From IMG/VR virus record IMGVR_UViG_3300031269_000015, positions 1 through 62,122 of that record: a stretch of DNA of 62,122 nt; one strand, 5' to 3'. This DNA is from a virus. Its lineage: Duplodnaviria; Caudoviricetes. Positions 2,041 through 55,558 of the stretch are shown here, piece by piece (position 1 is the stretch's first letter; every line of letters starts with the position of its first letter). The notes under the pieces were generated by a model. That model did no database searches, was not told the origin of the DNA, and saw nothing but the letters and a program-made list of their open reading frames with translations. A program made the translations under genes and the position numbers.

Positions 2041-3549
2041 ATGGATAATTCTCTCACTCAAAATCACCCTTCTTACACGGAACACCTTCCAGACTGGAAG
2101 CAGATGCGTGATACGTACAAAGGTGAGAAGCGAGTTAAGTCTCGAAGTACTGAATATCTTCCTGCTACGTCATCTCACATTTTAGATGGTTATGGAAAAG
2201 AAGCAAAATCCACAGGATCTACCGCTTACGCAGCTTATTTGAAAAGAGCTCGTTATCACAACTTTGTTCGTGAAGCTGTGCAGATGGCAGTTGGTATGAT
2301 GCATAACCAACCTCCGAAAATAGAATTACCTGACGGAATGGAAGACATTCGCTCCAGTAAAGGCGAAAAACTTGAAGACTTACTCCGCCGAATCAATTCA
2401 GAACAGCTTCTTGTTGGCCGCACTGGTATTATGGCAGATTTACCTCTTGTTCCCGGCTCTGGGCCAGATTTACCTATTCTATCGTTGTATGGAGCAGAAC
2501 GTATCATCAATTGGGACGTCGGCACCACTGATCTAAACAAAGACTCACTAAACATGGTGGTCTTAGACGAAACTGCTTATATTCGCAAAAATAACTTCAT
2601 GTGGGATCTCACAACCCAACATAGAGTTCTTATTCTCGGTGAACCAGATGATAACCAACAAATCGGAACTTACAGCCAAGCATTGTTTCGTGACAGCGCA
2701 TTTGACGAAGATGAGTTGAAGAGACCTTCCTACAAAGGTCGAGAACTCAATAAAATTCCGTTTGTGATCGTAAACTCTGTTGATGTTACCGCCGAGCCAG
2801 ATGATCCAGTTCTTTTGGACTTGAGCAACCTTTGTCTCACCCTATTTAGATCAGATGCAGATTATCGTCAAAATTTGTTTATGCAGGGGCAAGATACTTT
2901 CGTTACTACCGGAGCACAACTGGAAGAAGGAGATGCTGTCCGGACCGGTACAGGTGCTCGCTTAGATCTTCCATTGGGTGCGACAGCGGAATTTGTTGGC
3001 GTAGAAGGCAAAGGTCTAACAGAGCAACGTGAGGCTATCGACAAGTTAGAGAGCCGTGCTGGTACTATGGGTGCGAATACTTTAGACAGCACTAGTCGCG
3101 AGCGTGAAAGCGGCGACAGTATGCGAATCCGCGTCGCGAGCCGCACAGCAGACCTCAACCAAGTCGCAGATGCTGGCGCTATGGCACTCGAAGATATTCT
3201 TAAAACATGTGCTGTTTGGATGGGTCTAGACCCAAAAGAAGTAAAAGTCACACCGAACAAAGAATTCGGCGAGACACCACTCACAGGTCAGACGATGGTA
3301 GAGATGGCAACTGCTCGCACCTTGGGTTTCCCAATCAGTGCCTCTTCATTACATACTCTTGCTCGCAAGCGTAAAATCACTGCGCTTACTTTTGAAGAAG
3401 AAATGGCAGCTTCTAAACTAGAGGAAGCTGAAGATCATCCTTTCAGAACACCAGAAACTGGTGATATGGCTGGACCTGATCAAAATTCTACTGGAGACAA
3501 AACAGACGATAAAAAGTCTGCCCGTAACAAAGCTAAGACAGGGGAATGA
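2041..3549 (+). CDS. Portal protein (DUF4055-like)
   Basis: Follows TerL; ~500 aa; HP.Y...W...RD and Y..YL.RA motifs typical of this portal family. Confidence 0.88.
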   Translation: MDNSLTQNHPSYTEHLPDWKQMRDTYKGEKRVKSRSTEYLPATSSHILDGYGKEAKSTGSTAYAAYLKRARYHNFVREAVQMAVGMMHNQPPKIELPDGMEDIRSSKGEKLEDLLRRINSEQLLVGRTGIMADLPLVPGSGPDLPILSLYGAERIINWDVGTTDLNKDSLNMVVLDETAYIRKNNFMWDLTTQHRVLILGEPDDNQQIGTYSQALFRDSAFDEDELKRPSYKGRELNKIPFVIVNSVDVTAEPDDPVLLDLSNLCLTLFRSDADYRQNLFMQGQDTFVTTGAQLEEGDAVRTGTGARLDLPLGATAEFVGVEGKGLTEQREAIDKLESRAGTMGANTLDSTSRERESGDSMRIRVASRTADLNQVADAGAMALEDILKTCAVWMGLDPKEVKVTPNKEFGETPLTGQTMVEMATARTLGFPISASSLHTLARKRKITALTFEEEMAASKLEEAEDHPFRTPETGDMAGPDQNSTGDKTDDKKSARNKAKTGE

Positions 3550-10256: not shown

Positions 10257-10709
10257 ATGGCTACTCTAGCTCAATTCTCTAGAAACATCAGGCGGCGGGG
10301 TTCTCAGATTGAGAACTCCGCTTCTCGCATTGTTAAAGCTGTCTCTGTGCGTTCTTTGAAGAGTCTTGTTCGAAACACTCCTGCTGACAAAGGCGTCGCT
10401 CGTTCAAATTGGCGAGTGGGTATTGGTGCTCCTACTAGATCTGTTATCGATGCGTATTCTCCAGGAAAGAATCTTGGTATTGGTGAGAACGCAAATGCTT
10501 CTGCTGCCATCAACGCTGGACGAGCTCGCATAAACTCATTACGATCTTCTACAAGAGGTCTAGAAACTTCTATCTATATCAGCAATGCTGCTCCTTACAT
10601 AGAGAAGCTAAACTCCGGTTCATCTAAACAAGCCTCTGCAGGTTTTATTGAAATTGCTCTGTTGGAAGCTAAGGTCGAAATCGCTGGATTTAGGGTGTTT
10701 GAACGCTAA
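10257..10709 (+). CDS. HK97 gp10-like tail completion protein
   Basis: TP.D.G..RSNW and N.APY...LN.GSS.QA motifs. Confidence 0.8.
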   Translation: MATLAQFSRNIRRRGSQIENSASRIVKAVSVRSLKSLVRNTPADKGVARSNWRVGIGAPTRSVIDAYSPGKNLGIGENANASAAINAGRARINSLRSSTRGLETSIYISNAAPYIEKLNSGSSKQASAGFIEIALLEAKVEIAGFRVFER

Positions 10710-13700
10710 TGGTTACTGAGAATGTAGACATCAGATTTCGAGAAACTGGCGCAAGAGTAATCAAGCGCAGGATCGATGAAATAGGCGTAGCAGCCAACTC
10801 TGCTACTCGCGGCATCTTCTTGATGCAACGGGCTTTGTTCGTCTTGGGTGGAGCGGGAATCCTTCGTGGATTAACACGTCAACTTGATACACTAACTGAA
10901 TACGAGAACAGACTTCGTTTGACATCATCTAGTGCAAAAAATCTAGACTCGATACAGCGTCGTTTGTTTCAAACAGCTAGAGATAGTCGTACTGGATTTG
11001 AAGCTGTTGCTGAAATTTATAGCAGGACAGCACTCTCCGTGCGAGAGCTTGGTATCTCTCAAGCTGAAACGATAAGGTTTTCAGAAAGCCTTAGTAAAGC
11101 AACTATCATATCAGGTGCATCAGCCCGAGAAGCTCATGCAGCTCTTGTTCAGCTTGGACAAGGTATGGCCTCAAACACATTGCGGGGAGACGAACTTCGT
11201 TCTGTTCTTGAACAACTTCCATTTGTCGCTGACGTTATATCTAAGAGTCTTGGTGTAACTCGTGGTGAATTACGAATTCTTGGTGAAGAAGGTAAAATTT
11301 CAGCGCTGACTATTCTCAAAGCGTTCCGAGAAGCTGAAACAGAAATAGATCAACTTTTCGCAAACACGATGCCAACTATAAGCCAAGCACTATCAATCGC
11401 CAATACAAACTGGCTAGAGTTTCTAGATAGTATCGATGACTCAACTAATGCTTCTGGAAAACTCGCTCGGGCGATCATAGTTTTATCAAATAATATAGGT
11501 CTTATACTTGGTACAGTAGCAACATTGACTGTGGCTCTCGCTGCTGTATTCACAGGTAAAGCTATCACAGGTATCAGTAACTATATTCTCAGCTTAAGAG
11601 GGGCCGCACTTGCGTCTGGTCGTCTGCTTGAAGTAGAGAATCTCAGATCTTTATCATCAGTTCGTAACAATGCCTTAGTCGTAGCTCAGAATGCCCAGAG
11701 ACAAGTAGAACTTTCTCAGCGTCTAGCTCTCTTGGGTGTACTAAGATCTAATCTTAAACTAACAGTTCTTGATACTCAATTTACGGTGGTTAACGGGAGA
11801 GCTCGTAACATCGCAACAGGTAAATTCGTTGCTCTAGAAGTAGCTAAAACCAATCTCGCTAGAGTAACACAGAAACTTTCTATTGTAGAAAACATTGAAC
11901 TCACGACTGCTGGGAGGCTTGCCACAGCAAGGGCAGCACAAACAGGGGCCACCAACACCCTAGCGGGGGCCAACGCCCGTTTAGCGGGTGCACAAGCGGC
12001 GCAGGGGGCTATGGCGGCAAGGTTAACAGCTCTATTTCCAACTATGGCAGGGGTAATAGGTCGCCTAGCTGCTTCTGTTGGGTCTCTGGTCGCTTTCATT
12101 GGACCTATCGGGTTGATCGCTGTTGCTATCGGTGCGGTAGTAGGCTTGTTCGTTTTACTAGCGAACAAAATAAAGGTCACCGCGGATAATGTGGTCGGTC
12201 TCAGAGATTACGTAGTCTCCGCACTTCAACTTATGAAAGAGGTCATCTCTCCGGTAACGACTCTTATTGTAGAAGGTTTTGGTAGAGCAGTGGGATACGT
12301 TCTAGGTTTCTTTGCTGATCTTTCTACGGTTTTTGTAGAAGCGATGAAATCTTTAATTAAGGCAGCATACGACGCTTTTACATTCATCCCTAGATTAGTA
12401 GTTGCTGTCATTACTGGAATCATCGACGTTTTCCTACAGTTAGGTCCAGGAGCAGGATCAGCTTTAGACGCAGTCGTAGATATATTCGTGACGGGATTCG
12501 AAGCCGTAGGGAATATTGGTGTCGCAGGTATTCAAAAAATCATTGATGCTTTTAATTTATTAGCGAATACTGGCGCTGGTGATTTACTAGGGTTGAGTGA
12601 GATTGATTCTCTTGAAAACATAAATCTCGATAGATTGAGAACTAATTTTGGTGATGGAGGCGTTGGAGCGGGTGAAGCTTTCGCCGCAGGTTTCACTAAA
12701 TCTTGGGAATCTACTTCTTTTGATTCCGCTGCTGAAACAGTTTCTTCTGCTTTACAACCTCTAAATCAAGCAATCATAGATAGAGCACGAGAAAACATGG
12801 CCGCAGCAGAAGCGGAAGCTTTAATGCGACAGACAGAAATTGATACGTTAACTCCAGACAATAGTAATCCAAATAACACTGGTTCTGGTTCTGGTTCTGG
12901 TTCTGATAAGAATTTTGCTTCTATTTTAGCTAACATGAATAAAGAAATTGATCTTCTTAAATTAACTGCACAAGAGAGAACAGTTCTACAGGGTATCTTG
13001 AAAATAGAAGAAGAGCTGAAAAGAAATTTAACTGACCAAGAAAATCTTTTGGCTGTATCAACTCTTAGAAGTCTTGAAGTAGCTAAAGAGTCTGCCTCAA
13101 TATACGAAGAAATCAAAGGTCCATTAGATAGTTACACAACCAGTCTCGAAGCTTTGTATCTTGTACTAGACACAGGAAGAATATCTCAAGATGCGTTCAA
13201 TGTTTCTTTAGCTTCGTTGAATCAAACTATCTTAGAAACTGTGACGCAATCAGGAGATGGTTCGTTCGCGGACGGTTTCCTCTTGGGTATATCTCGAATG
13301 ACAGAAGGAGTTAGAACATTTGCTGCTTCTAGCGGTGAAGTGTTCTCTGACTTCTTTGGTTCTCTCACAACAGGATTCGCTGATAGTGTTGGTAAAGCTA
13401 TCGTTTTCTCAGAAAACTTAGGTCAGGCTTTGAAAAGTGTAGCCCAGAACGCTCTGGCTTCGTTGATCTCAGGGTTAGTGGAGATGGGAATCCAGTGGTT
13501 ACTGAACGCAGCTCTTGGACAGTCAATCGCTGTTGCAGCAACGGCTGCTTCCGTAGCGACTGCCGCCACAACTGCCGCCGCTTGGGCACCCGCCGCTGCT
13601 CTGGCTTCTCTAGCAACTCTAGGAACGAACGCTGCTCCTGCCGCTGCTGCAATCGCTTCAACCGTAGCTCTTAGCACTGGTCTTGCTGCTGCTGGGGGAT

Positions 13701-14122
13701 TTGCAGAAGGTGGTTTAATCACAGGACCAGGAGGTCCGAAAGAAGATAAAATACCAGCTTGGCTATCTAACAGAGAATTCGTGGTAAATGCTGATGCAAC
13801 CTCTAAAAATCTTCCATTGCTAAAAGCCATAAACTCAGGTATGGATGTATCCAGACTTCTACCTTCTTTCGCTTCTGGGTCTAGTAGCGACAAGCCGAGC
13901 ATGACTTCTGGGGGAATGAAAGTTTCTGTTCATAACTATACAGGGCAGAATGTTAAAGTTGAACAGATAAGTAAAGATGAGATAAGGATTATAGCTGGAG
14001 AAGAAGCTGAGAAAAAAATAAACGAGGTAACTCCAGAAATTGTAGCTGGTCAGCTAGTTGATTCGAACAGCACAATTTCATCAGCTTTTTCTGAGAACAC
14101 AACTGCTGAAAGAAGAAGATAA
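10709..14122 (+). CDS. Tape measure protein
   Basis: 1137 aa; AL.QL.Q....L.GDELRS.LEQ domain; C-terminal FA.GG.I.GPG...D.IPA.LS..EFVVNA. Confidence 0.95.
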   Translation: MVTENVDIRFRETGARVIKRRIDEIGVAANSATRGIFLMQRALFVLGGAGILRGLTRQLDTLTEYENRLRLTSSSAKNLDSIQRRLFQTARDSRTGFEAVAEIYSRTALSVRELGISQAETIRFSESLSKATIISGASAREAHAALVQLGQGMASNTLRGDELRSVLEQLPFVADVISKSLGVTRGELRILGEEGKISALTILKAFREAETEIDQLFANTMPTISQALSIANTNWLEFLDSIDDSTNASGKLARAIIVLSNNIGLILGTVATLTVALAAVFTGKAITGISNYILSLRGAALASGRLLEVENLRSLSSVRNNALVVAQNAQRQVELSQRLALLGVLRSNLKLTVLDTQFTVVNGRARNIATGKFVALEVAKTNLARVTQKLSIVENIELTTAGRLATARAAQTGATNTLAGANARLAGAQAAQGAMAARLTALFPTMAGVIGRLAASVGSLVAFIGPIGLIAVAIGAVVGLFVLLANKIKVTADNVVGLRDYVVSALQLMKEVISPVTTLIVEGFGRAVGYVLGFFADLSTVFVEAMKSLIKAAYDAFTFIPRLVVAVITGIIDVFLQLGPGAGSALDAVVDIFVTGFEAVGNIGVAGIQKIIDAFNLLANTGAGDLLGLSEIDSLENINLDRLRTNFGDGGVGAGEAFAAGFTKSWESTSFDSAAETVSSALQPLNQAIIDRARENMAAAEAEALMRQTEIDTLTPDNSNPNNTGSGSGSGSDKNFASILANMNKEIDLLKLTAQERTVLQGILKIEEELKRNLTDQENLLAVSTLRSLEVAKESASIYEEIKGPLDSYTTSLEALYLVLDTGRISQDAFNVSLASLNQTILETVTQSGDGSFADGFLLGISRMTEGVRTFAASSGEVFSDFFGSLTTGFADSVGKAIVFSENLGQALKSVAQNALASLISGLVEMGIQWLLNAALGQSIAVAATAASVATAATTAAAWAPAAALASLATLGTNAAPAAAAIASTVALSTGLAAAGGFAEGGLITGPGGPKEDKIPAWLSNREFVVNADATSKNLPLLKAINSGMDVSRLLPSFASGSSSDKPSMTSGGMKVSVHNYTGQNVKVEQISKDEIRIIAGEEAEKKINEVTPEIVAGQLVDSNSTISSAFSENTTAERRR

Positions 14123-19512: not shown

Positions 19513-19809
19513 ATGACCGAACAAAATAATAAATCTGACATACGTTTCAGTAATCGTCGACGAATGGCGTGGATATCTTTCTGGTTCATGCTTGTCGTCG
19601 GAGGATGGATGCTGATCTATGGTACAACCCAAGACGCAGCAGCAGAACGTGTCGAGAAACTCTCTTTCCTCTTGGGTTCATTGTTTGGTATGTGTACGAC
19701 TATTATAGTCAGCTATTTCACATCTTCTACTTTGACCCAAATAAACGACACTAAGTTTGGAGCCGTAGAAGACACTGTAGAGGGCAACGATGGTAATGGT
19801 AAGGCATAA
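19513..19809 (+). CDS. Putative holin
   Basis: RRRMAW then two hydrophobic helices; start of lysis cluster. Confidence 0.6.
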   Translation: MTEQNNKSDIRFSNRRRMAWISFWFMLVVGGWMLIYGTTQDAAAERVEKLSFLLGSLFGMCTTIIVSYFTSSTLTQINDTKFGAVEDTVEGNDGNGKA

Positions 19810-19911
19810 CACCCAAACAGGCAAACAGGACCTAAATGGCGGCGCTGTGGTGGTGCTGGTTGCACTGTGGTACACTACCCCAACACTGGCGCGTCTGTAG
19901 AGGTCTAAGTT

Positions 19912-20283
19912 ATGTCATCATTTCTAATTTCGCTGTTCGGAAAACGGGCTGGGGTTGCATTAGTGAAGTTTTTGCCGTATCTTTTGGTTGTGTCAATTGT
20001 CCTTTTGACTCTGTGGTGGGTTGATGGTAACGGCTACGACCGTGGTGTCGAAGCAACAGAACACAAATATCAAACAGCGATTCAAGAGGAACGTTCTCGT
20101 CAATCTGAAGCCAATGAAGAGGCTCTGGCAGAAGCGAGGCAGCGACAACTGAAACTTGAGAGATTACTTCATGAAAGAAATACAGAAATTGAAGAGTTGT
20201 TACTCGAAGGTTCTGAAGACCCTGATGCTGATCGCCGTGCTATTAGCGACGACAGCGTGTTTAGACTCAATCGGCTCCGTTGA
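19912..20283 (+). CDS. Inner-membrane spanin (Rz-like)
   Basis: N-terminal TM helix then coiled coil; overlapped by a lipoprotein gene. Confidence 0.75.
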   Translation: MSSFLISLFGKRAGVALVKFLPYLLVVSIVLLTLWWVDGNGYDRGVEATEHKYQTAIQEERSRQSEANEEALAEARQRQLKLERLLHERNTEIEELLLEGSEDPDADRRAISDDSVFRLNRLR

Positions 20284-21284: not shown

Positions 21285-21527
21285 AGTAGAGTCATCGTTG
21301 TTTTCTATGTTGTTGTTATTACTGCAAAGATTATCGCTGACTTTACTTGCACCCCTGCCACCCCTAGTTTCTAAATTGCTGGGGTTGCTGTGTTTAGCTG
21401 GGGTTATATTTTAGTAAAGTAAGTAAAGTAAGTAGAGTCAATGATAAATAAATATAATAAAAACAAAGGGTTAAGATGCCCTCACTTGGGGTCAAGCGAC
21501 GCTTCACGAATGAAGTCAGTAGAGTCA
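21285..21527. repeat. Three AGTAGAGTCA copies plus AAGT tandem and AT-rich tract; candidate origin
   Basis: Copies at 21285, 21431 and 21518 in the intergenic region between lysis and replication modules. Confidence 0.55.
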
Positions 21528-26262: not shown

Positions 26263-28125
26263 ATGCGAACTCAGGAGAAACGACGAATGGTTGGTCCACA
26301 AAACCCACACTGCGATGCTGTCGGAGCAGAAAAATACCGAGGCAAAAATGAAGATCATAGAGAGGCCACAAATCGGGTAGCTGGTTTCCTTCAAGATAAC
26401 CACGAACATTATATGGCATTTCGAGAATGCACAATGGATCAGCGGTTTATGCCTCCTGGTCGAGTTCAAGCTGGAGCAGGTTCTCTCAAGAACGTAACTC
26501 TATTCAATTGCTTTGTTATGCCAACTATACACGACAGTTTCGTTGATGGTCCAACTGATGAAGAGCGCAAACAATACATTGACTCTATTGATGGAAACAC
26601 TATTAGTTTCAAATTCTCAAACCACCTAGGATTCGCTCCAGAAAGCATAATGGACGTAGCTAAACTGTCGGCAACAACTATGCGACAGGGTGGCGGTGTT
26701 GGTTACGACTTCTCAACTCTACGTCCTTCGGGTGACATCATTAAAGGTGTAGACTCTACCACAGACGGTCCTCTAGTGTTTGCTGGTATCTATGACGCAA
26801 TCTGCAAAGCTACATCATCAGCAGGAAACAGACGCGGCGCACAGATGATGGTTATGCGGTGTGATCACCCAGACATCGAAGAGTTCATTCGTGCAAAGCA
26901 GGTCAGTGATCCAAACATTCCTTGGAACATGCGGCCTCTCCGAGGTTTCAACATGTCAGTGGCTGTTACTGACGAGCTGATGGAGGCTGTCAAATCAGAC
27001 AGCATGTTCACATTGAAATTCAATGGCATTGATTATCGTGAAGTCAATGCTCGTGCTTTGTGGGACATGATCATGCGCAGCACCTACGACTGGGCAGAAC
27101 CTGGAGTCCTGTTCATTGATCGTATCAACGAGATGAACAACCTGTACTATTGTGAAAAGATTGCGGCGACTAATCCCTGTGGTGAACAACCTCTCCCTCC
27201 TTATGGTGCTTGCCTCTTGGGTTCTTTCAACGTTGTTAAATATCTCCACAAAACTCCTAACGGTTCATGGACTTTCGATTGGGAACTTCTCGCACAAGAT
27301 ATTCCGAACGTAGTTCGTGCCATGGATAACGTAATTGATCGGAGCCGCTACCCTCTTCCTGAACAGCGTGTAGAAGCCCACTTGAAACGTCGTATGGGTC
27401 TCGGTCAAACTGGTCTAGCGAACGCCCTCGAAGCTATGGGTATGCCATACGGAACTCCTGAGTTCATTAAATTTCAAGATCGTCTTGGAGAGTTCATTGC
27501 AAATCACTGCTATCAAGCATCAGCTCTTCTTGCTGCTGAAAAAGGTTCATTCCCACTATATGATGAAACTCGTTATCTCTCTTCCAAGTTCGTCTTCTCT
27601 CTTTGGCCGGAAACTATCGATCTCATCAAGAAGCATGGTATTCGCAACAGTCACTTGACCAGCATTGCGCCGACTGGCACTATCTCACTTTATGCTGACA
27701 ATGTATCGTCTGGCGTAGAACCTGTTATAGCCTACAAACAGAAACGTAATGTTATCATGACATCCGGTGTTCAGACAGTAGAGATTCCTGACTACGGCGT
27801 TGCCGTTCTTGGGCATAAGGGTCGCACTGTAACTAACGGAAACATCACTGCTGATGAGCATGTAGCTGTTCTATGTACTGCCCAAAAGTGGAGCGACAGC
27901 GCGGTATCTAAAACGTGTAACGTTCCTTCTGACTTTACGTACGACGAGTTCAAAAACATCTATATGTCTGCTTGGGAAAATGGTGCCAAAGGTCTGACAA
28001 CATATCGTCCTGCCGGTAACTACGATGAGCCTATCAAATCTGCTGATGATGTTCAAGTTGAAGATGCTGGTGGGTCTTGCACTTTAGATGAGTTCGGTAG
28101 AAAAACTGGTGCCTGTGCAGACTAA
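26263..28125 (+). CDS. nrdJ: Class II (B12-dependent) ribonucleotide reductase
   Basis: FNCFV, GGGVG, RRGAQM, TNPCGEQ, APTGTIS; C-terminal Cys pair; no small-subunit gene. Confidence 0.9.
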   Translation: MRTQEKRRMVGPQNPHCDAVGAEKYRGKNEDHREATNRVAGFLQDNHEHYMAFRECTMDQRFMPPGRVQAGAGSLKNVTLFNCFVMPTIHDSFVDGPTDEERKQYIDSIDGNTISFKFSNHLGFAPESIMDVAKLSATTMRQGGGVGYDFSTLRPSGDIIKGVDSTTDGPLVFAGIYDAICKATSSAGNRRGAQMMVMRCDHPDIEEFIRAKQVSDPNIPWNMRPLRGFNMSVAVTDELMEAVKSDSMFTLKFNGIDYREVNARALWDMIMRSTYDWAEPGVLFIDRINEMNNLYYCEKIAATNPCGEQPLPPYGACLLGSFNVVKYLHKTPNGSWTFDWELLAQDIPNVVRAMDNVIDRSRYPLPEQRVEAHLKRRMGLGQTGLANALEAMGMPYGTPEFIKFQDRLGEFIANHCYQASALLAAEKGSFPLYDETRYLSSKFVFSLWPETIDLIKKHGIRNSHLTSIAPTGTISLYADNVSSGVEPVIAYKQKRNVIMTSGVQTVEIPDYGVAVLGHKGRTVTNGNITADEHVAVLCTAQKWSDSAVSKTCNVPSDFTYDEFKNIYMSAWENGAKGLTTYRPAGNYDEPIKSADDVQVEDAGGSCTLDEFGRKTGACAD

Positions 28126-28240
28126 CTAAACTATTTGTCTTTACTGGACAATTAAGGGTTGCCTCGGATATGGGAATAAGTTAGGCTTAATTATGCCCAA
28201 GCAGAGGCAACCTTTGATATCAGATAAACGGAGAAATGAT

Positions 28241-28957
28241 ATGAACATCACCTTTAACGATACAGAATACGCTGAAGAAGACTTGGCTCAACTGTCCATT
28301 GAAGACCTTTTGATACTGCGCAATGAAGTGGCCGTCAGCCTCAGCGTCGCAGAAGTCAAAGGTTTCAAAGATCAAGCCGCTGGCGCTGCTCAGACTTGGA
28401 AAGCGCTCCTGCGTCACAACAAGGCTTCTGAAGTACCGAAAGCCAAAGCTGTCAAAGTAAAAGCTGAACCCAAAGAGCGTGGTCTGGCCAAATCTGCTGA
28501 AGCGAAGACGGTCAAACGTCCGAACCAGAAAATGTTTTCAACCATCACCAAAACTGGCGAACACGATGGTACTCAGGGTCGGACACATCGCTGGCCGAAC
28601 TACACTGATGGCATGACCATTGTCGACGTCATTGAAAAAGAAGGCACTGAGCCATGGGACGTCTACAACTGGACTGGTCAAGGTATCATGACCATCACCG
28701 AACCAACCGAAGAAGAGTTCGTTGCTCGCAAAGCGGCTTGGTACACGAAGCATGGTTTGACTGATCCTGAATCTGCAAAAGCTGAAGCGGCTGCCGAACG
28801 AGCAAAAGCGAAAATTGAGCGTGACGAAGCTGCTGCTGTCAAGAAAAAAGAACGCGAAGATGCGAAACTTGCGAAAATCGCTGAGCGTGAAGCTGCTGTC
28901 AAAGCCAAGGCTGACGCGAAAGCCGAAAAAGAAGCTGCGAAAGCTGCTGCTGAATAA
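28241..28957 (+). CDS. Hypothetical protein with Lys/Ala/Glu-rich C-terminus
   Basis: Strong codon bias; TTGCCT-N17-TAGGCT upstream; coupled to the next gene (TAATG). Confidence 0.7.
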   Translation: MNITFNDTEYAEEDLAQLSIEDLLILRNEVAVSLSVAEVKGFKDQAAGAAQTWKALLRHNKASEVPKAKAVKVKAEPKERGLAKSAEAKTVKRPNQKMFSTITKTGEHDGTQGRTHRWPNYTDGMTIVDVIEKEGTEPWDVYNWTGQGIMTITEPTEEEFVARKAAWYTKHGLTDPESAKAEAAAERAKAKIERDEAAAVKKKEREDAKLAKIAEREAAVKAKADAKAEKEAAKAAAE

Positions 28958-29847
28958 TGTCTGAACTTCAGACACAAGCGTTCTTCAGCTTTGTTGAGGA
29001 ACGCGAACAGATCCGCCTGCGAAAGCTGGCGGATTTGCCATTTCCCTGGACCGAAGACCAGATCCTGAGGGATTACAAATTCACCAATGTCCACAGACAC
29101 CATGACCGAACCAGTAATGAACTGAGAGAGCGGTTCTACACTCCACATTTCAACGCCGACCCTGTTACTATTTTAATGAATGCTGCGACATTCCGTTATT
29201 TTGGAACCTATGAGTTCGCTTCTGTTATTGGGTGGACTGAGTCTCAACACATGACCTCTGAACACTGGGATATGGTTAAAGAACTCGCTAGAGACAGACT
29301 AGCGAACAAACAGCGAGTTTTCACTGGTGCCTATGTTATCACGAATCAAGGTATCTCTGCTCCAAAACAAGAAGTGGTAGTTGATTATTTTCTCAAATCT
29401 CTTCAAAAGAAAGCCTCTTTTCTCACTGCAATAGCTAAAGAAACTCAAAGCTGGGAAAAAGTTGCTACTGAGATGCGAAAGATCAACGGTTTTGGCGGCT
29501 CTGGGTTCATGACAAAAGAGATCTTGTTAGATACTACTTACACTGATTTCTGGTCTGATCCTGATGGACTGTTCTCTTTCCCCACTGACTGGAATGATTG
29601 GACACCTATCGGTCCAGGAGCCAGACGTGGTGCGGCTCGTGCTCTGGGAGATGAAACTGCAAAACCACTAAAAGAAGATAAAGCGTTCTCTGTTATCTGG
29701 CAGCTATGGTTTGAGCGTGATAAGTTCATCCCTGATATAGAGATGTGCCTTCATGATGTGCAGTTCCAACTTTGTGAGTTTGACAAGTATGAGCGTGTTC
29801 GTTTGGGTCAAGGACGACCACGGTCTCGATACAAAATACCTAAATAA
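28957..29847 (+). CDS. aGPT-Pplase1 / 5-hmdU DNA kinase helical-domain family protein
   Basis: F...ERE.I......P.PWT.D.IL..YKFTNV.R..DR.S, FR.F, GPGA.RG, LCEFDKY.R. Confidence 0.85.
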   Translation: MSELQTQAFFSFVEEREQIRLRKLADLPFPWTEDQILRDYKFTNVHRHHDRTSNELRERFYTPHFNADPVTILMNAATFRYFGTYEFASVIGWTESQHMTSEHWDMVKELARDRLANKQRVFTGAYVITNQGISAPKQEVVVDYFLKSLQKKASFLTAIAKETQSWEKVATEMRKINGFGGSGFMTKEILLDTTYTDFWSDPDGLFSFPTDWNDWTPIGPGARRGAARALGDETAKPLKEDKAFSVIWQLWFERDKFIPDIEMCLHDVQFQLCEFDKYERVRLGQGRPRSRYKIPK

Positions 29848-29932
29848 TCTAAAAGAGGGCGACAACTAGCACTTGTCTTTTGCGCCCTCTGCTATTATGG
29901 TGGTTAAACATAACCTGTTGGAGACAACCCAA

Positions 29933-31204
29933 ATGAAAATATTAGTCGCACTTCATAAGTGCATGGACCTCGGTGGTATTGTTGATCACACCGAACAATT
30001 GATCGGCGGTCTTAAAGAACTAGGTCACACAGTTCAACTTAAAGAACTCGTATGGTCATTCCAAGCATCAGACCAACGCAAAACTGCAGACTGGTCTTTC
30101 GGACCAAGTAACATTCCTCATCACCAAGGCAAAGGCTGGAACTTTGCAAAAACAAATCGCATTCCTTATCGCGGCAGAGCTCACCTTAGCGGTGCCAAGC
30201 AAATTCTGGGCGGGTACGATCTCATTATCTGGACAATGCCTGTTCCAAGCAAAAATCAAGACAATCTAGGTAACAATGACTGGCCTGAATTGTATGATCT
30301 CCCATCCACTACCAAACAAATTGCGTTTGTTCACGATGGTAACGTAGTGAAAGGAGCCGGACATCTTCTGGCTATCCAAGATAAACTTTCTGGGCTTGCT
30401 TGTGTTCACCCTTGTGCTCTCAATGGAGCGGTTTTTGCAGACGTCCCACGAGCATTGGTCTTAAACCCACAGAAAAATCCTGTTCGTACTTATGCTAGAT
30501 GGGACTGGAAGTCTCGCGGTTTCGTAAACATGCAAACTTTCAAAGCGTGGAAACATGCTCATGAACTAGTCGAAGCTATCAGGTATATGCCTAGCAAAAA
30601 GTCCGATGAGATGCGTGAAATAGCCGGCTTAGGCATTGAATATCGCTATATGACCAGTGAAGAAAAGTGCAAAGATGCTTATTTCCATGAAGATGGGACA
30701 AAGTTTTGGGATGCTGCTATAGAAAACGGCATGACTCATCATGACTATTGGGACAAAACTGAAGTTGACAATTATCTTGTTGAATCTCGAGTGCTTGTTG
30801 ATCCATCATGGTCAAACAACTATTCTAAAGTCGGAGGTCATTTTAACCGAGTGGCTGTTGATGCTATGATGCGGGGTTGTGTGGTCGTGGCTCGTCAAAA
30901 AGGTATGGGTTCTGAATTGTTCAAAGCTGGTGAGCATTACATAGCTATTCCAGAAAATGCCGATTCTCAAGAGTATGCTGAAATCGTTCTGGAAGCCGGA
31001 AACCAATCTATCAAAACAGCCCAATGTATGATCGATGCAAATCAAGAACTTTTGCCATTGTTTGAACGGAAAACGGTGGCTCAACGTGTGATCGATCTTG
31101 CAAATGGGAACTGTGATGTAGAAGCAGTCCAGGGAACTGCGACACAAGCAATGAAAGCAAAAGTTGAAGATCAACTGTTTAATCACTTTGGAGTTTTACT
31201 ATAA
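29933..31204 (+). CDS. GT-B fold glycosyltransferase, putative DNA base glycosyltransferase
   Basis: N-terminal GG motif, HD, K..H.L..A, DPS and VDAMMRGCVVVA (variant of EAM..G.PVV). Confidence 0.75.
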   Translation: MKILVALHKCMDLGGIVDHTEQLIGGLKELGHTVQLKELVWSFQASDQRKTADWSFGPSNIPHHQGKGWNFAKTNRIPYRGRAHLSGAKQILGGYDLIIWTMPVPSKNQDNLGNNDWPELYDLPSTTKQIAFVHDGNVVKGAGHLLAIQDKLSGLACVHPCALNGAVFADVPRALVLNPQKNPVRTYARWDWKSRGFVNMQTFKAWKHAHELVEAIRYMPSKKSDEMREIAGLGIEYRYMTSEEKCKDAYFHEDGTKFWDAAIENGMTHHDYWDKTEVDNYLVESRVLVDPSWSNNYSKVGGHFNRVAVDAMMRGCVVVARQKGMGSELFKAGEHYIAIPENADSQEYAEIVLEAGNQSIKTAQCMIDANQELLPLFERKTVAQRVIDLANGNCDVEAVQGTATQAMKAKVEDQLFNHFGVLL

Positions 31205-32202
31205 TGCACATTATCAAAGCAAGAAACGTAGAAGACGCTCTTCTGTTGGGTGTTGATATGATCAATGAAACTGGTGTTCAGCGAGACAGCCGTAATGGTC
31301 CAGTGAAGCTAATGCCTCAACCAGTAACAACTGTCTACGAACATCCAAGAGAAAGAGTTATGTTCCTTCCTGAACGTGACTGCAATCCGTTCTTCCACTT
31401 CATGGAATGCCTCTGGATGATGGCAGGTCGTCGTGATGTTGAATGGATTAGTCGCTTCAATAGTGGTATGGTTAACTACACTGACGATGGAGTCAATTTC
31501 CATGGAGCCTATGGCTATCGCTGGCGAAACCACTTCCCAGATGGTGAATTCGTGATTGATCAGCTCGCTACTATAGCAGCCACTCTCAAGTCAAACCCTG
31601 ACGACCGTCGTACTGTTCTGCAAATGTGGGACGCGACATCTGATCTTGGTTTCGAAGGTAAGGACTTTCCATGCAACCTAATCATCACGTTTCGTATCAA
31701 CGTAGCTGGTCATCTCGATATGACTGTGTTCAATCGCAGCAACGATATGATCTGGGGAGCCTACGGAGCCAACGCTGTTCATATGTCATTCATGCAAGAA
31801 GTTATGGCTTCTTGGATTGGTGTCCCTGTTGGGTGTTACTGGCAGATCAGCACAAATTTCCACGCCTATCTCGAAACACTGAAAAAAGTAGAGCCTCTGT
31901 TGTCTCAGTCTGCTGGGTTCACTGATTACGAGCTTGGTAACGTGGAACCTTTCAACATTGTTAACTCTTCAATCGATACATGGTTTAGCGAACTGTCTAT
32001 GTTCATGGAAGATGGCGCTAATGTGATGGGTTACACAGATCCGTTTTTCAAACGTGTTGCTGTACCGATGATGCTTTCTTGGGAAAAATGGAAAGATAAA
32101 GGTAATCCTGATCGTGTTGAAATGGCAATCGCTTCAGCAGAGAATATTGTCGCAACTGACTGGCAGAAGGCTTGTATTGAATGGTTGGAGCGTAGAGCGT
32201 GA
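31204..32202 (+). CDS. Thymidylate synthase homolog, probable dUMP hydroxymethylase
   Basis: GAYG.R, DRR, PCN catalytic Cys, RSND..WG..AN (Asn at the dUMP-specificity position), H.Y. Confidence 0.85.
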   Translation: MHIIKARNVEDALLLGVDMINETGVQRDSRNGPVKLMPQPVTTVYEHPRERVMFLPERDCNPFFHFMECLWMMAGRRDVEWISRFNSGMVNYTDDGVNFHGAYGYRWRNHFPDGEFVIDQLATIAATLKSNPDDRRTVLQMWDATSDLGFEGKDFPCNLIITFRINVAGHLDMTVFNRSNDMIWGAYGANAVHMSFMQEVMASWIGVPVGCYWQISTNFHAYLETLKKVEPLLSQSAGFTDYELGNVEPFNIVNSSIDTWFSELSMFMEDGANVMGYTDPFFKRVAVPMMLSWEKWKDKGNPDRVEMAIASAENIVATDWQKACIEWLERRA

Positions 32203-32747
32203 TTTATGAAATAGATGGAATTTTAAGTAAAATAAAATTCACTCGGGAGGCATCGGCAGTCAGTCGGTGTCATACCATTGCTCACCATGGAGAATATCCG
32301 GTAGGTCTCCATACTTTTAATATGTTAGCTACTTTAAGACTAATGTGGCCTGTTGCTCCTCTTGTCTTAGTTTGGGCTATACTAGAGCACGATATCCCAG
32401 AGAGACTTACTGGAGATATTCCTTCTCCACCTAAAGATCATGGAGTTGTAGGTAAAGATCATCTTAATAATTTAGAAATAATGATCAACACTGCTGTTTT
32501 CGGTTGTCACAATTTATCTTCACTAAACCCAGAAGAAACAACATGGTTTAAGGGATTAGATATTCTAGAACTTTATATGTGGTGTAAAGATCAGGAAATG
32601 CTCGGTAACAAAAATATACGAGTAATGATGGCTAGAATTGATAAGTTTTTTAAATTCAATTCTCATAAAGTTGCCAAAGAAATTGTCGACGTATACCACT
32701 TGTGTTATCATGACACTTGGGATATGTGTCACGACCTAGGAGATTAA
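32199..32747 (+). CDS. HD-domain 5'-deoxynucleotidase (YfbR-like)
   Basis: V.R.H, V..H, HD.PE..TGDIP.P, D.LE. Confidence 0.8.
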   Translation: MIYEIDGILSKIKFTREASAVSRCHTIAHHGEYPVGLHTFNMLATLRLMWPVAPLVLVWAILEHDIPERLTGDIPSPPKDHGVVGKDHLNNLEIMINTAVFGCHNLSSLNPEETTWFKGLDILELYMWCKDQEMLGNKNIRVMMARIDKFFKFNSHKVAKEIVDVYHLCYHDTWDMCHDLGD

Positions 32748-32748
32748 A

Positions 32749-33330
32749 ATGAAATCAATTCAAGTAGGTGGAAATCACTACTCCGCAGCTTACCAACACT
32801 GGGATTGGGCGATGGACGTTGACCTTGGTTATTTCGAGGCGGCGGCTTCCAAGTATGCTTTTCGCTGGTACAAGAAAAACGGTCTTGAAGACTTGGACAA
32901 GGCTCGGTCGTATTTAATTAAAGCTAAGGAAGGATATGTGAGTAGAAGAAAGTTTAACAGATGCTATCACGTTCATGTTCTCATGAATTGCCGTGAAAAA
33001 GCTAAAGAAAAGTATCGTAATTTTGTGAACAGTGCAAAGGTACCAGAGGTAGAAGCTGGACTGTGTCTTAGAATTGCTGAATGGCACAACGATACTGACC
33101 TCAGCGTTCTGATTGGCTTAATCAGTGCTTACATGGACGCCGTACAAGTGCAACTGGATGCAGGTGGTACCCTTGGCCCCCTTGCGCCGCTAACGGCCAC
33201 CCAGCGGCAAAAAACAGGGGGTAGCGGACGTTCTAACGGTGCCACCACCCAAGCCACCGCTTCTAGCGCGTCCACAGACGTCGGTATTAATCATCCTTTC
33301 CCATTTGGTTATTGTCCAGGTGATCTCTAA
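32749..33330 (+). CDS. DUF3310-like protein (putative nucleotide kinase) with low-complexity tail
   Basis: QVGG.HY, KY..R...KNG.EDL.KA..YL. Confidence 0.75.
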   Translation: MKSIQVGGNHYSAAYQHWDWAMDVDLGYFEAAASKYAFRWYKKNGLEDLDKARSYLIKAKEGYVSRRKFNRCYHVHVLMNCREKAKEKYRNFVNSAKVPEVEAGLCLRIAEWHNDTDLSVLIGLISAYMDAVQVQLDAGGTLGPLAPLTATQRQKTGGSGRSNGATTQATASSASTDVGINHPFPFGYCPGDL

Positions 33331-36194: not shown

Positions 36195-36734
36195 TTGAAA
36201 CACTGTATGATAGACTTAGAAACATTTGGTACCTCAGCGGGTTGTGTCATTCGCTCAATCGGCGCTGTTGCTTTTGATCCTAGAACTCCTCGTTTGGGCG
36301 CAGAGTTCTACAAGAATATTACGGAAGAAGATCAAATTGCATGTGGAGCTTTCAAAGATCCATCCACTATCAAATGGTGGGATTCGCAAGGCGATTCTGC
36401 TAAAGAAATTTTGGAACCAAACCAGATGGATCTAAAAACTGTTGTCAATGGATTCAACAATTTTTGGAAAGAAAATAAGTTAAAATTCGCTTGGTCTCAA
36501 GGATCTAACTTTGATAGTGTCTTATGGGAAGCAACTTGTAAGTTAGTCGGCGTTAGACCACCTTGGCAGTTCTACAATACCCGAGACACTCGAACTGTCT
36601 ACGACATGGCTGGTCTTAACACAAAGACCATTCCTCGCAAAGGAATCTACCATTATGCTTTGGATGACTGCAAACATCAAGTTCGATGTGTTTACAAATC
36701 TTACATGATGCGCGATGGAGTAACTGAACGATGA
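36195..36734 (+). CDS. DEDDh 3'-5' exonuclease
   Basis: MIDLET, NFD, RD.RT, H.ALDD. Confidence 0.88.
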   Translation: MKHCMIDLETFGTSAGCVIRSIGAVAFDPRTPRLGAEFYKNITEEDQIACGAFKDPSTIKWWDSQGDSAKEILEPNQMDLKTVVNGFNNFWKENKLKFAWSQGSNFDSVLWEATCKLVGVRPPWQFYNTRDTRTVYDMAGLNTKTIPRKGIYHYALDDCKHQVRCVYKSYMMRDGVTER

Positions 36735-37186
36735 ATGATGATAAAATGTTTATGAAACACGCAGTTCATGCAAGCAAATTCAGTCCTGATCCTTCCACGA
36801 AAGTAGGTTCAGTGGTTGTTCTTGGGGGCGCTGTGTTCTCCGTAGGCTTCAACCAATTTCCTAGTGGAGTACTAGAAAGTGATGAAAGACTGAACGATCG
36901 TACTCAAAAATACCCAAGAGTAATACATGCAGAAGCAAACGCTCTCGTCGAAGGGGCAAGATTGATGCATCGAGAACGACCACTTCTTGGGTTTGAATGG
37001 GCCACTCTCTACACCACCGAATTTCCTTGCTGTTCCTGCTGTGGGCTGATTATTCAACATGGTATTAAGAGAGTTGTGTCCCAAGATTTAAGTAGTGATT
37101 ACGCCGAAAGATGGGCAGAACAGATTGAAATCTCTAAGTCTATGTTTAGTGAATCTGGCGTAGAACTAGTGGTAATTCCCCGATAA
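36731..37186 (+). CDS. dCMP deaminase
   Basis: S.DP..KVG, HAE.NAL, PC..C. Confidence 0.92.
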   Translation: MNDDKMFMKHAVHASKFSPDPSTKVGSVVVLGGAVFSVGFNQFPSGVLESDERLNDRTQKYPRVIHAEANALVEGARLMHRERPLLGFEWATLYTTEFPCCSCCGLIIQHGIKRVVSQDLSSDYAERWAEQIEISKSMFSESGVELVVIPR

Positions 37187-37945: not shown

Positions 37946-40361
37946 GTCACAACGCGCTATAGATTTCCTACAAAAGTTCTACCCAAAGGGACCTTGGCTT
38001 CTCACCTCAATTCAAACAGATCGTAAAGCTATTGACACAAAACCGTTCGGTCCGAAATCAATTGAAGAGTGTATGTTTTGGCTTGAAAAATACAACGGTG
38101 ATCGCAATATATATTTCACGGTCAACCAGCCTAACATTGCTTTTCTAAAGTCAAGTGGAGTCAAAAAACCAAACAAAGAAGACATGTTTGAAGCTCATTG
38201 GTTGCATGTCGATATAGACCCAGCGGAAGCTTCAGCAGACGAAAAAGATATGGATGGTTTCATTAAAATGGAACGAGAGCGTATCCTGAGCGTATTGACT
38301 GATCGTTTACCAAAAGGCATAGAAAAACCAACGGTGATCATATTCTCCGGTGGTGGATATCAGGCTTTCTGGAAATTAGATAAACCTTTCCGAATAGATG
38401 GAACTGAAACAGCGTGGAGTGAATTTGAACTATACAACAAACGTCTAGAACAAGTGTTCGGAGGCGACCACTGCCACAACGTAGACAGGATAATGCGACT
38501 TCCTGGGACAGTTAACGTTCCTGATGCAAAGAAACGCAAAAAAGGCCGCACAGAGCAACTCGCAAAGCTGTTAGAGTTTGACAAGAAAAACTCTTATTCA
38601 ATAGAAAATTTCAAGAAAGCGCAGGCAGTTCAAACTTCAGGTCCTGGACGCCATGATGGTGGTGAGTACGGTATCAAAGTTGATATTCCTGGGAATGTTG
38701 AAAAAATTGCTGACCTAAGTGAATTAGACGTGTGGGAAGTTCCCGATAGAGTTAAGGTTATTATCGCACAAGGACAGCATCCAGATCAACCAAAAGAGGG
38801 TGATAATTCTCGGTCTGCTTGGCTGTTTGATTGCGTGTGTTCGCTGGCCAGATGTAACGTTCCAGACGGTGTTATATTTGCAATTTTGACCGACCCTGAG
38901 TGGGGGATTGCGAGCAGTATTGTTGAGCTCAAAGGAGGTGCTGAAAAGTATGCAATTCGCCAGATCAAGCGGGCAAAAGAGTACAGTGAAGATCCCCATC
39001 TAACAAAGATGAACGACCGACATGCAATTATCGGTAACATTGGAGGAAAGTGCCGCGTCATCGAGGAGATCGAGGATGATGTTCTGCACCGCAGTCGTAT
39101 CACAATGTCAAGTTTCGAAGATGTTCGTAACAGATATGGTAACATTCAAATTCAAATCGGTTCTACTGACAAGGGTGATCCTGTTCATATCCCCTTGGGT
39201 AAGTATTGGATTAATCACCGAATGCGTAGACAATACGACACTATGAAGTTCATGCCTCAGGGTGATCAACCAGGAGTTTATAATTTATGGCGAGGATTTA
39301 ATGTAGAGCCAATTCCCGGCGATTGTTCTATTTATCTAGAGCATCTAAAAGAAAACGTATGCAGTGGAGACAAAGGACATTATGATTACCTCATTAAGTG
39401 GATGGCAAGAGTTGTTCAGACACCTGCAAGTCCGGGAGAAGTTGCGATTGTCCTTAGAGGAGGAAAAGGTACTGGTAAAGGCTATTTCGCAAGAACATTC
39501 GGCAGGCTCTTTGGAAGACACCATCTTCACGTTGCTAATCCTTCACACCTTGTCGGAAACTTCAACGCTCATTTACGAGACGTTATATCTCTGTTTGCGG
39601 ATGAAGCTTTTTTCGCTGGTGATAAGAGACATGAAAGTGTTCTCAAGATGCTTATCACTGAGGACAGTATTCCAATTGAAGCCAAAGGAATTGATACCGA
39701 ACCCTATCCCAACTACGTTCACCTCATCATGGCTTCGAATGACCCTCACGTTATCAGGGCCACAGGGGACGAGCGCCGTTACTTCGTACTAGATATGGGG
39801 GACGGTCGTAAACAAGACTCAGGTTTCTTTAAGTCACTAACTCACCAAATGGATAATGGTGGATATGAAGCTTTACTGTACCATCTACAAAATGTAGATA
39901 TGACTGATTTCGAAGTTCGTAACGTACCTCAAACTGAGGCGCTAAACGAACAGAAACTAATGTCTATGGGTGTTGAAGAAGAATGGTGGTATCACAAACT
40001 CTGGGACGGTTACGTACTAGAAGGTCACGACAGCTGGATGCGTGATGTTCAAACAGAGTTGCTTGAAAAAGACTACACTAATTACGCTGACAAATGGAAA
40101 TTTGCGAGAAGAGGCAACGCCACTCTCTTAGGTCGTTTCTTAAAAAGTGTTATTCCCCACATAAACAAAATGCAAAAGCGAGTTACTGTAGAGGAGTACG
40201 ATCAAGGAACAGGAGGAACCCAGAGAACTAAGAAAAGATTATACCATTACGACCTTGGGAGCTTAGATCAGTGTAGAATATCATGGGACAAAGTTTATGG
40301 TGCTCGTGATTGGCCTTCTCCCGTTGAACTTGATCCAGGAGAGATGGAGGTTCCATTCTAA
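37935..40361 (+). CDS. Primase-helicase
   Basis: H.D.D, SGGG.Q..W, RIMRLPGT.N primase; G.KGTGK Walker A, FADE, SN, RRY. Confidence 0.9.
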   Translation: MKGESQRAIDFLQKFYPKGPWLLTSIQTDRKAIDTKPFGPKSIEECMFWLEKYNGDRNIYFTVNQPNIAFLKSSGVKKPNKEDMFEAHWLHVDIDPAEASADEKDMDGFIKMERERILSVLTDRLPKGIEKPTVIIFSGGGYQAFWKLDKPFRIDGTETAWSEFELYNKRLEQVFGGDHCHNVDRIMRLPGTVNVPDAKKRKKGRTEQLAKLLEFDKKNSYSIENFKKAQAVQTSGPGRHDGGEYGIKVDIPGNVEKIADLSELDVWEVPDRVKVIIAQGQHPDQPKEGDNSRSAWLFDCVCSLARCNVPDGVIFAILTDPEWGIASSIVELKGGAEKYAIRQIKRAKEYSEDPHLTKMNDRHAIIGNIGGKCRVIEEIEDDVLHRSRITMSSFEDVRNRYGNIQIQIGSTDKGDPVHIPLGKYWINHRMRRQYDTMKFMPQGDQPGVYNLWRGFNVEPIPGDCSIYLEHLKENVCSGDKGHYDYLIKWMARVVQTPASPGEVAIVLRGGKGTGKGYFARTFGRLFGRHHLHVANPSHLVGNFNAHLRDVISLFADEAFFAGDKRHESVLKMLITEDSIPIEAKGIDTEPYPNYVHLIMASNDPHVIRATGDERRYFVLDMGDGRKQDSGFFKSLTHQMDNGGYEALLYHLQNVDMTDFEVRNVPQTEALNEQKLMSMGVEEEWWYHKLWDGYVLEGHDSWMRDVQTELLEKDYTNYADKWKFARRGNATLLGRFLKSVIPHINKMQKRVTVEEYDQGTGGTQRTKKRLYHYDLGSLDQCRISWDKVYGARDWPSPVELDPGEMEVPF

Positions 40362-40663: not shown

Positions 40664-40809
40664 GGACGCGCTAGATGCCGTTGCTTACCCTGCCCTACCC
40701 CTACAGCATTCAAGGCCGTCCCTGCCCCACCGTATAGGGCAGGGATACAAAGGTTTGGTCAGTTTGGCGGCTACTGTGCTACAATAAAGTTCAATTATTG
40801 GAGGCTACC

Positions 40810-55531: not shown

Positions 55532-55558
55532 TCCCCGCTGATTTCTCAGCGGGGATTT
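55532..55558 (+). terminator. Intrinsic terminator-like hairpin
   Basis: TCCCCGCTGA-TTTC-TCAGCGGGGA-TTT. Confidence 0.65.

Follow-up and report, generated by a model that had tools for sequence, protein, structure and literature searches.

In the accessible parts of the published accounts, hypermodification derived from 5-hydroxymethyl-deoxyuridine (5-hmdU) is described as partial, the base that follows the thymidine deciding on its occurrence, with TG or TC as contexts in phages M6, ViI and PhiW-14 (Flodman 2019, PMC6449724). The context is TG in M6 and mainly TG in phage SH-Ab 15599, and restriction sites are protected by such thymidine hypermodification, as far as the available text of these reports goes (PMC6449724; Lee 2021, PMC8989533; PMC13458397). 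A purine is concerned in Pseudomonas phage iggy, where preQ0 (7-deazaguanine) is given for 97% of GA sites, and in CAjan, where GA plus GGC is modified; GA is the established DpdA motif in both phages according to the sections available (PMC10484667). Here we consider a 62,122-nt stretch of DNA, the whole of the virus record IMGVR_UViG_3300031269_000015 (Caudoviricetes; rated 97% complete) and referred to below as the window, and its GA/TC deserts, i.e. segments in which the dinucleotide GA and its complement TC are missing or nearly so. No account of context-free islands or GA/TC deserts was found in the literature searched, including the available portions of published work on M6-type phages and on iggy.

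The window resembles M6, ViI, PhiW-14 and SH-Ab 15599, within the accessible parts of their descriptions, in having a thymidylate-synthase homologue, an aGPT-Pplase/HMUDK-helical protein, a dCMP deaminase and its own polymerase, and the gene order of its replication module is that of Pseudomonas phage M6. The published context of the M6 type is mainly TG in the text available, whereas the statistics of the window indicate TC only; M6 and Pam3 are annotated with pyridoxal-phosphate (PLP) and radical-SAM enzymes, which the window lacks; the window has a glycosyltransferase, and M6 shows no deserts in any dinucleotide class. Phage iggy, in which nearly all sites of the same dinucleotide pair are modified according to the sections available, has deserts in both coding and intergenic DNA, as does the window. 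Its base and enzymes (DpdA, QueC/D/E, FolE) are, however, different, with DpdA/TGT and QueC finding no match in the window; the pair is under-represented in iggy (observed/expected ratio, o/e, 0.79) and over-represented in the window (1.12), and the words of the deserts differ between iggy and the clade of the window.

Two further kinds of local or word-specific selection offer a comparison. Restriction-site avoidance in phage genomes is likewise a selection on short words which acts at the DNA level and overrides codon preference, but it is genome-wide and concerns 4-8 bp sites of host enzymes, whereas in the window a 2-bp step, commoner than expected genome-wide, is missing from certain stretches only. 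Unmethylated CpG islands and Dam/GATC-regulated regions are local control regions differing epigenetically from the bulk genome. CpG islands retain the motif and evade the enzyme, whereas the deserts delete the motif itself, throughout one gene and in a portion of a structural one, and thereby encode the escape in the sequence.

Distribution and conservation of the GA/TC deserts

GA and TC occur at 8656 sites in the window, i.e. one per 7.2 nt, and each is mildly over-represented genome-wide (o/e 1.10 for GA and 1.15 for TC). The longest runs free of both measure 171 and 134 nt and lie within 55796-56101, a region absent from the list of the original prediction; they are followed by a run inside the tape-measure gene (gap 117, 11914-12031); in 40 third-order Markov genomes the longest simulated run did not exceed 77 nt, and phage lambda, taken as a control, has no run of at least 100 nt. 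Deserts were called in 100-nt frames with a Poisson tail below 1e-4. Six frames passed for GA/TC and none for AC/GT, AG/CT or CA/TG, and when the ten strand-symmetric dinucleotide classes were compared, deserts were found only for GA/TC among those of similar frequency. The deserts are specific to GA/TC, exceed chance and are conserved. They are GC-rich (0.55-0.66 against 0.447 for the window). It should be added that shuffling codons within genes across the whole genome (1000 trials) produced a coding run of at least 117 nt in 17% of trials, because the codon pool of the gene at 55910-56305 is itself already poor in GA/TC; the tape-measure segment came out empty in none of the 1000. A recount returned the zero at 11916-12031 and the numbers of sites in the other patches exactly as they had been listed in the original prediction.

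The tape-measure gene (10709-14122, + strand, 1137 aa by ORF call, with 41 related loci in viral contigs) carries its desert at 11916-12031, or 11902-12060 by the 100-nt scan. The segment encodes RLATARAAQTGATNTLAGANARLAGAQAAQGAMAARLTA, 39 residues rich in Ala, Gly, Thr and Gln and devoid of Asp, Glu and Ser. Its own base composition predicts 13.5 GA/TC sites, and none is seen. Resampling synonymous codons from the pool of the gene gave a mean of 8.1 sites and an empty segment once in 200,000 trials, the genome-wide pool gave an empty segment once in 20,000, and runs of 117 nt or longer turned up somewhere in the gene in 0.04% of 5000 permutations. With 8.1 sites still expected for this peptide, peptide composition is therefore insufficient to explain the desert, and the codon-shuffled control that had been proposed along with the prediction speaks in its favour. 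The abrupt mid-gene switch of codons that had been described is also apparent: GCT accounts for 2 of 16 Ala codons in the desert against 77 of 145 in the rest of the gene, GGG for 3 of 4 Gly codons against 13 of 93, AGG for 3 of 4 Arg codons against 4 of 56, and T-ending codons for 13% against 36%.

The same segment is empty in the relatives. All eight closest loci that cover it (five distinct sequences, 53-92% protein identity) have 0-1 GA/TC in the homologous 117 nt, within GA/TC-free runs of 111-123 nt that share the same centre. The peptide across the desert is conserved among these relatives, fourfold codons of the same amino acid inside it are only 38-72% identical between pairs, and such serines as occur in the relatives' deserts use the codon AGC. 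Synonymous divergence combined with persistent emptiness means that the sequence drifts while the dinucleotide remains excluded.

The largest desert (55742-56430, + strand) has the layout of a small transcription unit, with promoter-like boxes at 55807-55835, a gene at 55910-56305, hairpins at 56323-56349 and 56363-56402 (fold z of the hairpin region -2.5) and a T run after the second hairpin. Between 55796 and 56425 there are 11 GA/TC sites against 75 expected from base composition, and AA/TT is found 82 times against 58.3 expected. The gene, coding for a protein of 131 aa on the + strand, contains 6 sites, whereas codon shuffling gave 29.7 on average and never fewer than 14 in 20,000 trials, and only 2 of 130 residues of its product are Asp or Glu. 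Together with its upstream region it is poor in GA/TC, or even devoid of it, at 11 of 11 related loci: three of them have no site against 43, 43 and 28 expected, and the two most distant have 2 against 38 and 0 against 28.7, with empty zones of about 900 nt. The promoter-like boxes keep their positions in the 11-sequence alignment and the leader is conserved too. The near absence of Asp and Glu here, along with the synonymous choice in the tape-measure segment and the use of AGC for Ser in its relatives, bears out the claim that the islands overwrite coding sequence.

The 131-aa protein belongs to a family of 74 homologous clusters (73-178 aa), which are metagenomic and come from contigs of up to phage-genome size. 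It had no match in Pfam, PHROG or NCBIfam and no tblastn match among 50,697 phage records. Its structural model has a mean predicted local distance difference test (pLDDT) score of 70.5; the N-terminal third is basic and predicted to be disordered, and residues ~50-131 fold with pLDDT of 83-92. A Foldseek search of the model against the Protein Data Bank (PDB) gave nothing at E<=0.001. The top rows of an exhaustive structure alignment were winged-helix domains (JetA, MukF, CENP-B, ORC, H1) with Z of 4.3-5.8, values that lie below the reliable range and may reflect a generic fold, and the protein atlas returned weak structural rows of a similar kind. The model thus offers no more than a lead towards a possible DNA-binding winged-helix protein whose tail is basic.

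Several other features were noted around this unit. The leader between the promoter-like boxes and the gene start contains an exact 11-nt word twice, 16 nt apart (55857-55883), with an operator-like look. At the left edge, 55700-55800 is strongly folded (z -6.4). An exact 16-nt palindrome occurs there twice, at 55709-55724 and at 55733-55748, along with a further long inverted repeat, and the stretch may represent a pair of operators or else terminate the genes upstream. Just upstream, a 35-nt direct repeat, 94% identical and rich in GA/TC, occupies 55556-55590 and 55632-55666, 76 nt apart.

For the wider clade, two complete relatives, G001 (66,259 nt) and G002 (64,599 nt), were compared in full, and a further complete record (G005) and two partial ones (G006 and G007) were added, which gives six clade records including the window. 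By the same threshold G001 and G002 have five deserts each, syntenic with those of the window at the tape-measure gene, 19.8 kb, 33.1 kb, 40.7 kb and 55.7-56.4 kb. Deserts were present in six of six records, with longest runs of 164-616 nt (301 in G005, 616 in G006 and 265 in G007), and the pattern is maintained across genomes of 45-52% GC. Conservation of position, which had been put forward as a check on the islands, was found at the 8 tape-measure loci, the 11 loci of the 131-aa gene, the five syntenic deserts and the six clade records.

Four of the smaller deserts (named I19, I33, I40 and I52 after their positions in kb) are headed by a shared 20-nt motif. I19 (19781-19899) is mostly intergenic and directly upstream of the gene 19912-20283; its core at 19791-19894 has 1 GA/TC against 13 expected from base composition, and its motif copy at 19883-19902 (- strand) agrees at 14 of 20 positions, compared with 17 and 19 of 20 in the syntenic deserts of G001 and G002. 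I33 (33123-33261) lies in the C-terminal coding part of a DUF3310-like gene (32749-33330), some 70 nt before the next gene, with its motif copy at 33260-33279 (- strand); it contains 5 sites, whereas codon shuffling gave 14.2 on average and never fewer than 6 in 20,000 trials, and 4 sites are counted in 33138-33270. I40 (40658-40797, + strand) begins with the motif at 40658-40677 (18/20, as in each of the syntenic copies of G001 and G002), continues with the desert (4 GA/TC in the core, 40676-40790) and runs to promoter-like boxes at 40755-40785 before the ligase gene. I52 (52301-52397, + strand), upstream of the gene 52411-52635, contains the motif at 52359-52378 (15/20) and 3 sites against 12 expected. 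The motif occurs on either strand, and the ~100 nt after it contain no more than 6 GA/TC (2 to 4 in I19, I33 and I40 and 6 in I52), and the same architecture is found in syntenic deserts of G001, G002 and G005, two copies in G001 matching the motif exactly. The words said to be shared between islands are in concordance with this: 5 of the 10 genome copies of CCCTAC fall within islands, which make up 2.7% of the sequence, and the similarity pointed out between 40661 and 52363 belongs to the 20-nt motif family.

I21 (21335-21434), between lysis-like genes and the SNF2 helicase gene, has a fold z-score of -3.1, a long inverted repeat and promoter-like boxes at 21342-21370 that belong to the type preceding the 131-aa gene; 21341-21435 contains 1 site against 11.2 expected. 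Two weaker patches complete the set, one at 50228-50409 upstream of the gene 50410-50664 (9 sites against 20.8 expected in 50228-50400) and the other at 53629-53786 (6 against 18.8) between the diverging genes 52899-53648 (-) and 53926-54594 (+, small terminase by PHROG). Structured RNAs were considered and rejected, since a gathering scan of the deserts against Rfam gave no match and fold energies are ordinary, with z-scores of -0.06, 0.32, -1.08, -0.53 and 0.59 for five deserts and I21 alone at -3.1. Chi hotspots were rejected as well: none of the 4 window copies of the Escherichia coli octamer, which may not be the Chi of the host, lies in a desert. In G001 and G002, 4 of 9 and 5 of 13 copies of this octamer do so, on mixed strands (e.g. 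G001 5131, 13366, 44973 and 56939).

Predicted modification genes and the probable TC/GA context

A block at 28957-32747 (+ strand), between the reductase and polymerase genes, bears the marks of thymidine hypermodification, with an HMUDK-helical/aGPT-Pplase-like gene, a group-1 glycosyltransferase, a thymidylate-synthase homologue and an HD-type deoxynucleotidase-like gene, the last by a weak match below its cut-off. The product of 28957-29847 matches HMUDK_hel of Pfam (9.4e-36) and, by tblastn, proteins annotated as aGPT-Pplase at 24-28% identity. That of 31204-32202 matches Thymidylat_synt of Pfam (1.1e-22) and reaches 69 bits where the best thymidylate-synthase model of NCBIfam demands 174.55; it is therefore a divergent homologue of thymidylate synthase; as such it is a putative deoxyuridine monophosphate (dUMP) hydroxymethylase. 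A supply of dUMP, the exclusion of dTTP and a replicase of the phage's own are represented, apart from the weakly matching HD-type gene, by the dCMP deaminase at 36731-37186 (3.2e-18), the family A polymerase and the ribonucleotide reductase. TGT/DpdA and QueC (PF01702 and PF06508) had no match in the window and were each detected in 14 of 14 control genomes; the context is therefore read as T followed by C and not as a GA purine. T in the TC context amounts to about 25% of all T on both strands (8656/34,333).

Since protected sites need not be avoided, 6-bp palindromes were compared as observed over codon-shuffled expectation, 16 of them containing GA/TC and 48 not. Palindromes with GA/TC stand at 0.91 of expectation in the window and the others at 0.57 (p=3e-5); the corresponding values are 0.92 and 0.48 in G001 (p 4e-4), 1.03 and 0.38 in G002 (p <1e-5) and 0.85 and 0.53 in G005 (p 1e-3). 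The contrast thus holds in four of four genomes under the codon-shuffle null, and it holds in six of six clade records, G006 and G007 included, under composition and Markov nulls. Splitting the clade palindromes by CA/TG gave no contrast. In M6, used as the positive control, CA/TG palindromes stand at 0.93 and the others at 0.34 (p=2e-5), in agreement with the published TG specificity. The hypermodification genes, the palindrome contrast and the M6 control together lead us to regard TC/GA as probably the modified context of this phage, and the deserts as probably unmodified on both strands.

A separate observation on the same palindromes is that the clade avoids the GC-containing ones more strongly (Markov medians of 0.21-0.42 compared with 0.79-0.85 for the rest), which may reflect host restriction enzymes.

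Deserts are not restricted to this clade. Phage iggy (L067/L068) has five GA/TC-free stretches of 107-170 nt (3179-3285, 27694-27853, 39300-39455, 42700-42869 and 60074-60224), each with 0 sites against 12.5-18 expected and each GC-rich, three of them in annotated genes and two intergenic; its longest run is 171 against a maximum of 119 in 40 Markov simulations. Two of the stretches coincide with the points where the two gene arms probably start, and another with the junction between these arms. The sequenced relatives of iggy are too close or too far to speak for or against conservation, with 96% identity or more in some and no possible alignment across the desert tested in the others.

Proposed accessibility and its alternatives

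The explanation that we lean towards, with some reserve, is that the conserved deserts are unmodified, accessible windows in the genome of a TC-hypermodifying phage. Thymidine would most likely be replaced by a 5-hmdU derivative and then hypermodified where it precedes C, i.e. at GA on the other strand. Purifying selection would exclude TC and GA from both strands over a few stretches of 100-700 bp, by way of synonymous codons (GCA/GCG/GCC, GGG, AGG and AGC for Ser) and of amino-acid choice (almost no Asp/Glu), and these stretches would remain unmodified within an otherwise masked genome. Their purpose may be readability for proteins that do not tolerate a modified major groove. The simplest candidate reader would be the host RNA polymerase on the incoming genome, others being phage or host regulators or initiators, and the 131-aa protein may be an immediate-early product or itself a reader of the windows. 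That the deserts serve accessibility is inferred. The original prediction saw in them landing pads kept unmodified, for replication restart, recombination, packaging/ejection or as loader sites, and it is partly supported; conservation stands and the unmodified state is probable, but nothing speaks for these roles and the evidence points towards control regions instead, because seven of the nine deserts overlap intergenic DNA (non-coding DNA being 8.6% of the window in the ORF set of this analysis) and the largest takes in a small transcription unit in full, with conserved promoter-like boxes.

A number of results weigh against this explanation. The modification of the phage is a prediction from gene content and palindrome statistics; in the putative kinase only the family of the helical domain was matched, a P-loop kinase domain was not detected, and the neighbouring gene at 28193-28957 has no family in Pfam, PHROG or NCBIfam. 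The palindrome contrast is not significant in iggy, whose GA modification is established, and the test is therefore not universally sensitive. Intergenic DNA overall is not depleted of GA/TC (o/e 0.98), which means that there is no general difference between coding and non-coding DNA, and deserts are a minority among the 43 intergenic stretches that reach 40 nt. A sigma-70 consensus scan gave 12 and 19 sites where shuffles gave 17.0 and 13.4, i.e. no excess, and the 20-nt motif shared by four deserts itself includes two GA. In a distant relative of the tape-measure gene (L009, 39% identity) the depletion is only partial. No promoter-like element or other site was recognisable in the tape-measure desert, which is located deep within a late gene, and accessibility leaves this desert unexplained. 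It equally fails to account for the absence of any GA/TC run of at least 100 nt from M6 and from the first 50 kb each of Pam3, CAjan and PAJD-1, and deserts are therefore no automatic result of dinucleotide-specific modification.

Among the alternatives, the one we would give most weight, while still thinking it unlikely, makes the deserts copies of a dispersed oriented repeat that is unrelated to modification and consists of a 20-nt head (CTCTACGGACGCGCTGGATG in G001) and about 100 nt rich in CCACCA, serving a phage protein as a site of binding, priming, recombination or termination; its lack of GA/TC would then stem from its own function or ancestry. The motif heads described above, found on either strand within and between genes, are what such an element would look like; CCACCA is seven-fold enriched in the deserts of the clade (28 against 4.0 expected in a first-order model of those deserts), and even the tape-measure desert opens with what looks like a degenerate head. 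The largest desert is nevertheless headless while it and its 11 of 11 relatives are the most extreme, the palindrome contrast is left unexplained, and the deserts of iggy have other words. Moreover, the bodies of the copies have diverged almost fully and are still free of GA/TC, which argues for selection on the dinucleotide itself. The repeat is compatible with accessible windows if the element is what binds in the unmodified window. An improbable variant would leave the meaning of the deserts unchanged and alter the chemistry: the protected context would be the G or A of GA, modified by an unrecognised purine-modifying enzyme, and not the T of TC. Sequence statistics are blind to GA on one strand versus TC on the other, and iggy, where GA is the DpdA motif as it is in CAjan according to the available sections of the report, has deserts too; against this stand the failure of TGT/DpdA and QueC to match in the window, with both recovered from every one of the control genomes, and the presence of a thymidine pathway.

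Constraints that act on RNA, or a bias of mutation, would be very improbable causes. A ribonuclease cutting at GA/UC, structured RNAs or a TC-directed deaminase could be imagined, and the enrichment of AA/TT in the largest desert is such as TC-to-TT changes would produce. The loss of GA and TC alike, with elements on either strand, points to duplex DNA, however; four of the five deserts tested have ordinary fold energies (z -1.1 to +0.6), without an Rfam match, and deamination would lower GC, whereas the deserts are high in GC and have sharp boundaries whose positions are conserved. Barely credible, and the least so of all, is that the deserts are merely low-complexity coding segments rich in Ala, Gly and Thr, or GC-rich segments, brought about by composition or by a GC-rich donor. 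The tape-measure peptide does lack Asp, Glu and Ser, the deserts do exceed the window in GC, and tape-measure genes are mosaic in general. Some 8 sites are nevertheless expected given the peptide and 13.5 by local base composition where 0 are seen, the same depletion occurs in non-coding deserts, and the pattern held at 45-52% GC; as the peptide is conserved in the relatives, the tape-measure segment is not an insertion.

A bolder extension of accessible windows is offered tentatively, and we think it rather doubtful as a whole. Phages that mask a two-base context would create unmasked windows by removing this context from parts of their genomes. In this clade the windows would include a complete immediate-early unit, whose small winged-helix-like product with a basic tail reads or exploits them, and an in-frame window in the tape-measure gene; the same design would have arisen independently in iggy, and it would represent a general layer of phage genome organisation that has gone unnoticed and is recognisable from sequence alone.

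Were the deserts indeed unmodified windows, the modification context of an uncultured phage could be read from sequence in two independent ways, from the palindromes that escape avoidance and from the dinucleotide missing in the deserts. TC-specific thymidine hypermodification would be predicted for this phage, the published cases being mainly TG as far as the available text covers them. Furthermore, hypermodification would carry a cost for the phage's own DNA transactions, which selection pays by recoding proteins at defined sites of 100-700 bp. The deserts would mark candidate early promoters, origins or binding sites, along with a conserved gene of 131 aa, and they would be the stretches of the genome still open to restriction enzymes and sequence-specific tools.

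Genome context and minor features

The window has a GC content of 44.7% and carries almost all its genes on the + strand. Genes for terminase, portal, capsid, tail and tape-measure proteins are present, as is a replication block with an SNF2 helicase, a Dda-like helicase, ribonucleotide reductase, family A polymerase, dCMP deaminase, primase-helicase and ligase. A tRNA scan of the window gave none. No DNA-level relative of the window was found among the 50,697 phage records, nor did the tape-measure gene or the largest desert have a DNA match among them, and the nearest isolates by large terminase are only 54-57% identical. The public runs that contain the window sequence (24 rows, assembled contigs) are all labelled as salt lake metagenome, with no RNA holder among them. 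The clade is an uncultured and widespread environmental group of phages.

Some minor observations may be added. If the record is circular, the small-terminase gene (53926-54594) and the large-terminase gene (429-1994) are about 8.6 kb apart, and the gap contains the largest desert and tail-fibre-like genes. Inside the replication block, between I33 and the polymerase gene, a 132-aa ORF at 33330-33728 matches the prohead serine protease family (Peptidase_S78, 2.6e-11). The start of the gene 57636-58466, which has collagen-like tail-fibre family matches, contains 178 nt without AT and 115 nt without AA/TT (57705-57950), probably owing to a Gly-X-Y repeat. Finally, a tandem 9-nt unit at 60783-60837, in the gene 60186-61292, forms a GA/TC-free run of 54 nt and is likely a collagen-like repeat, unlike the deserts.

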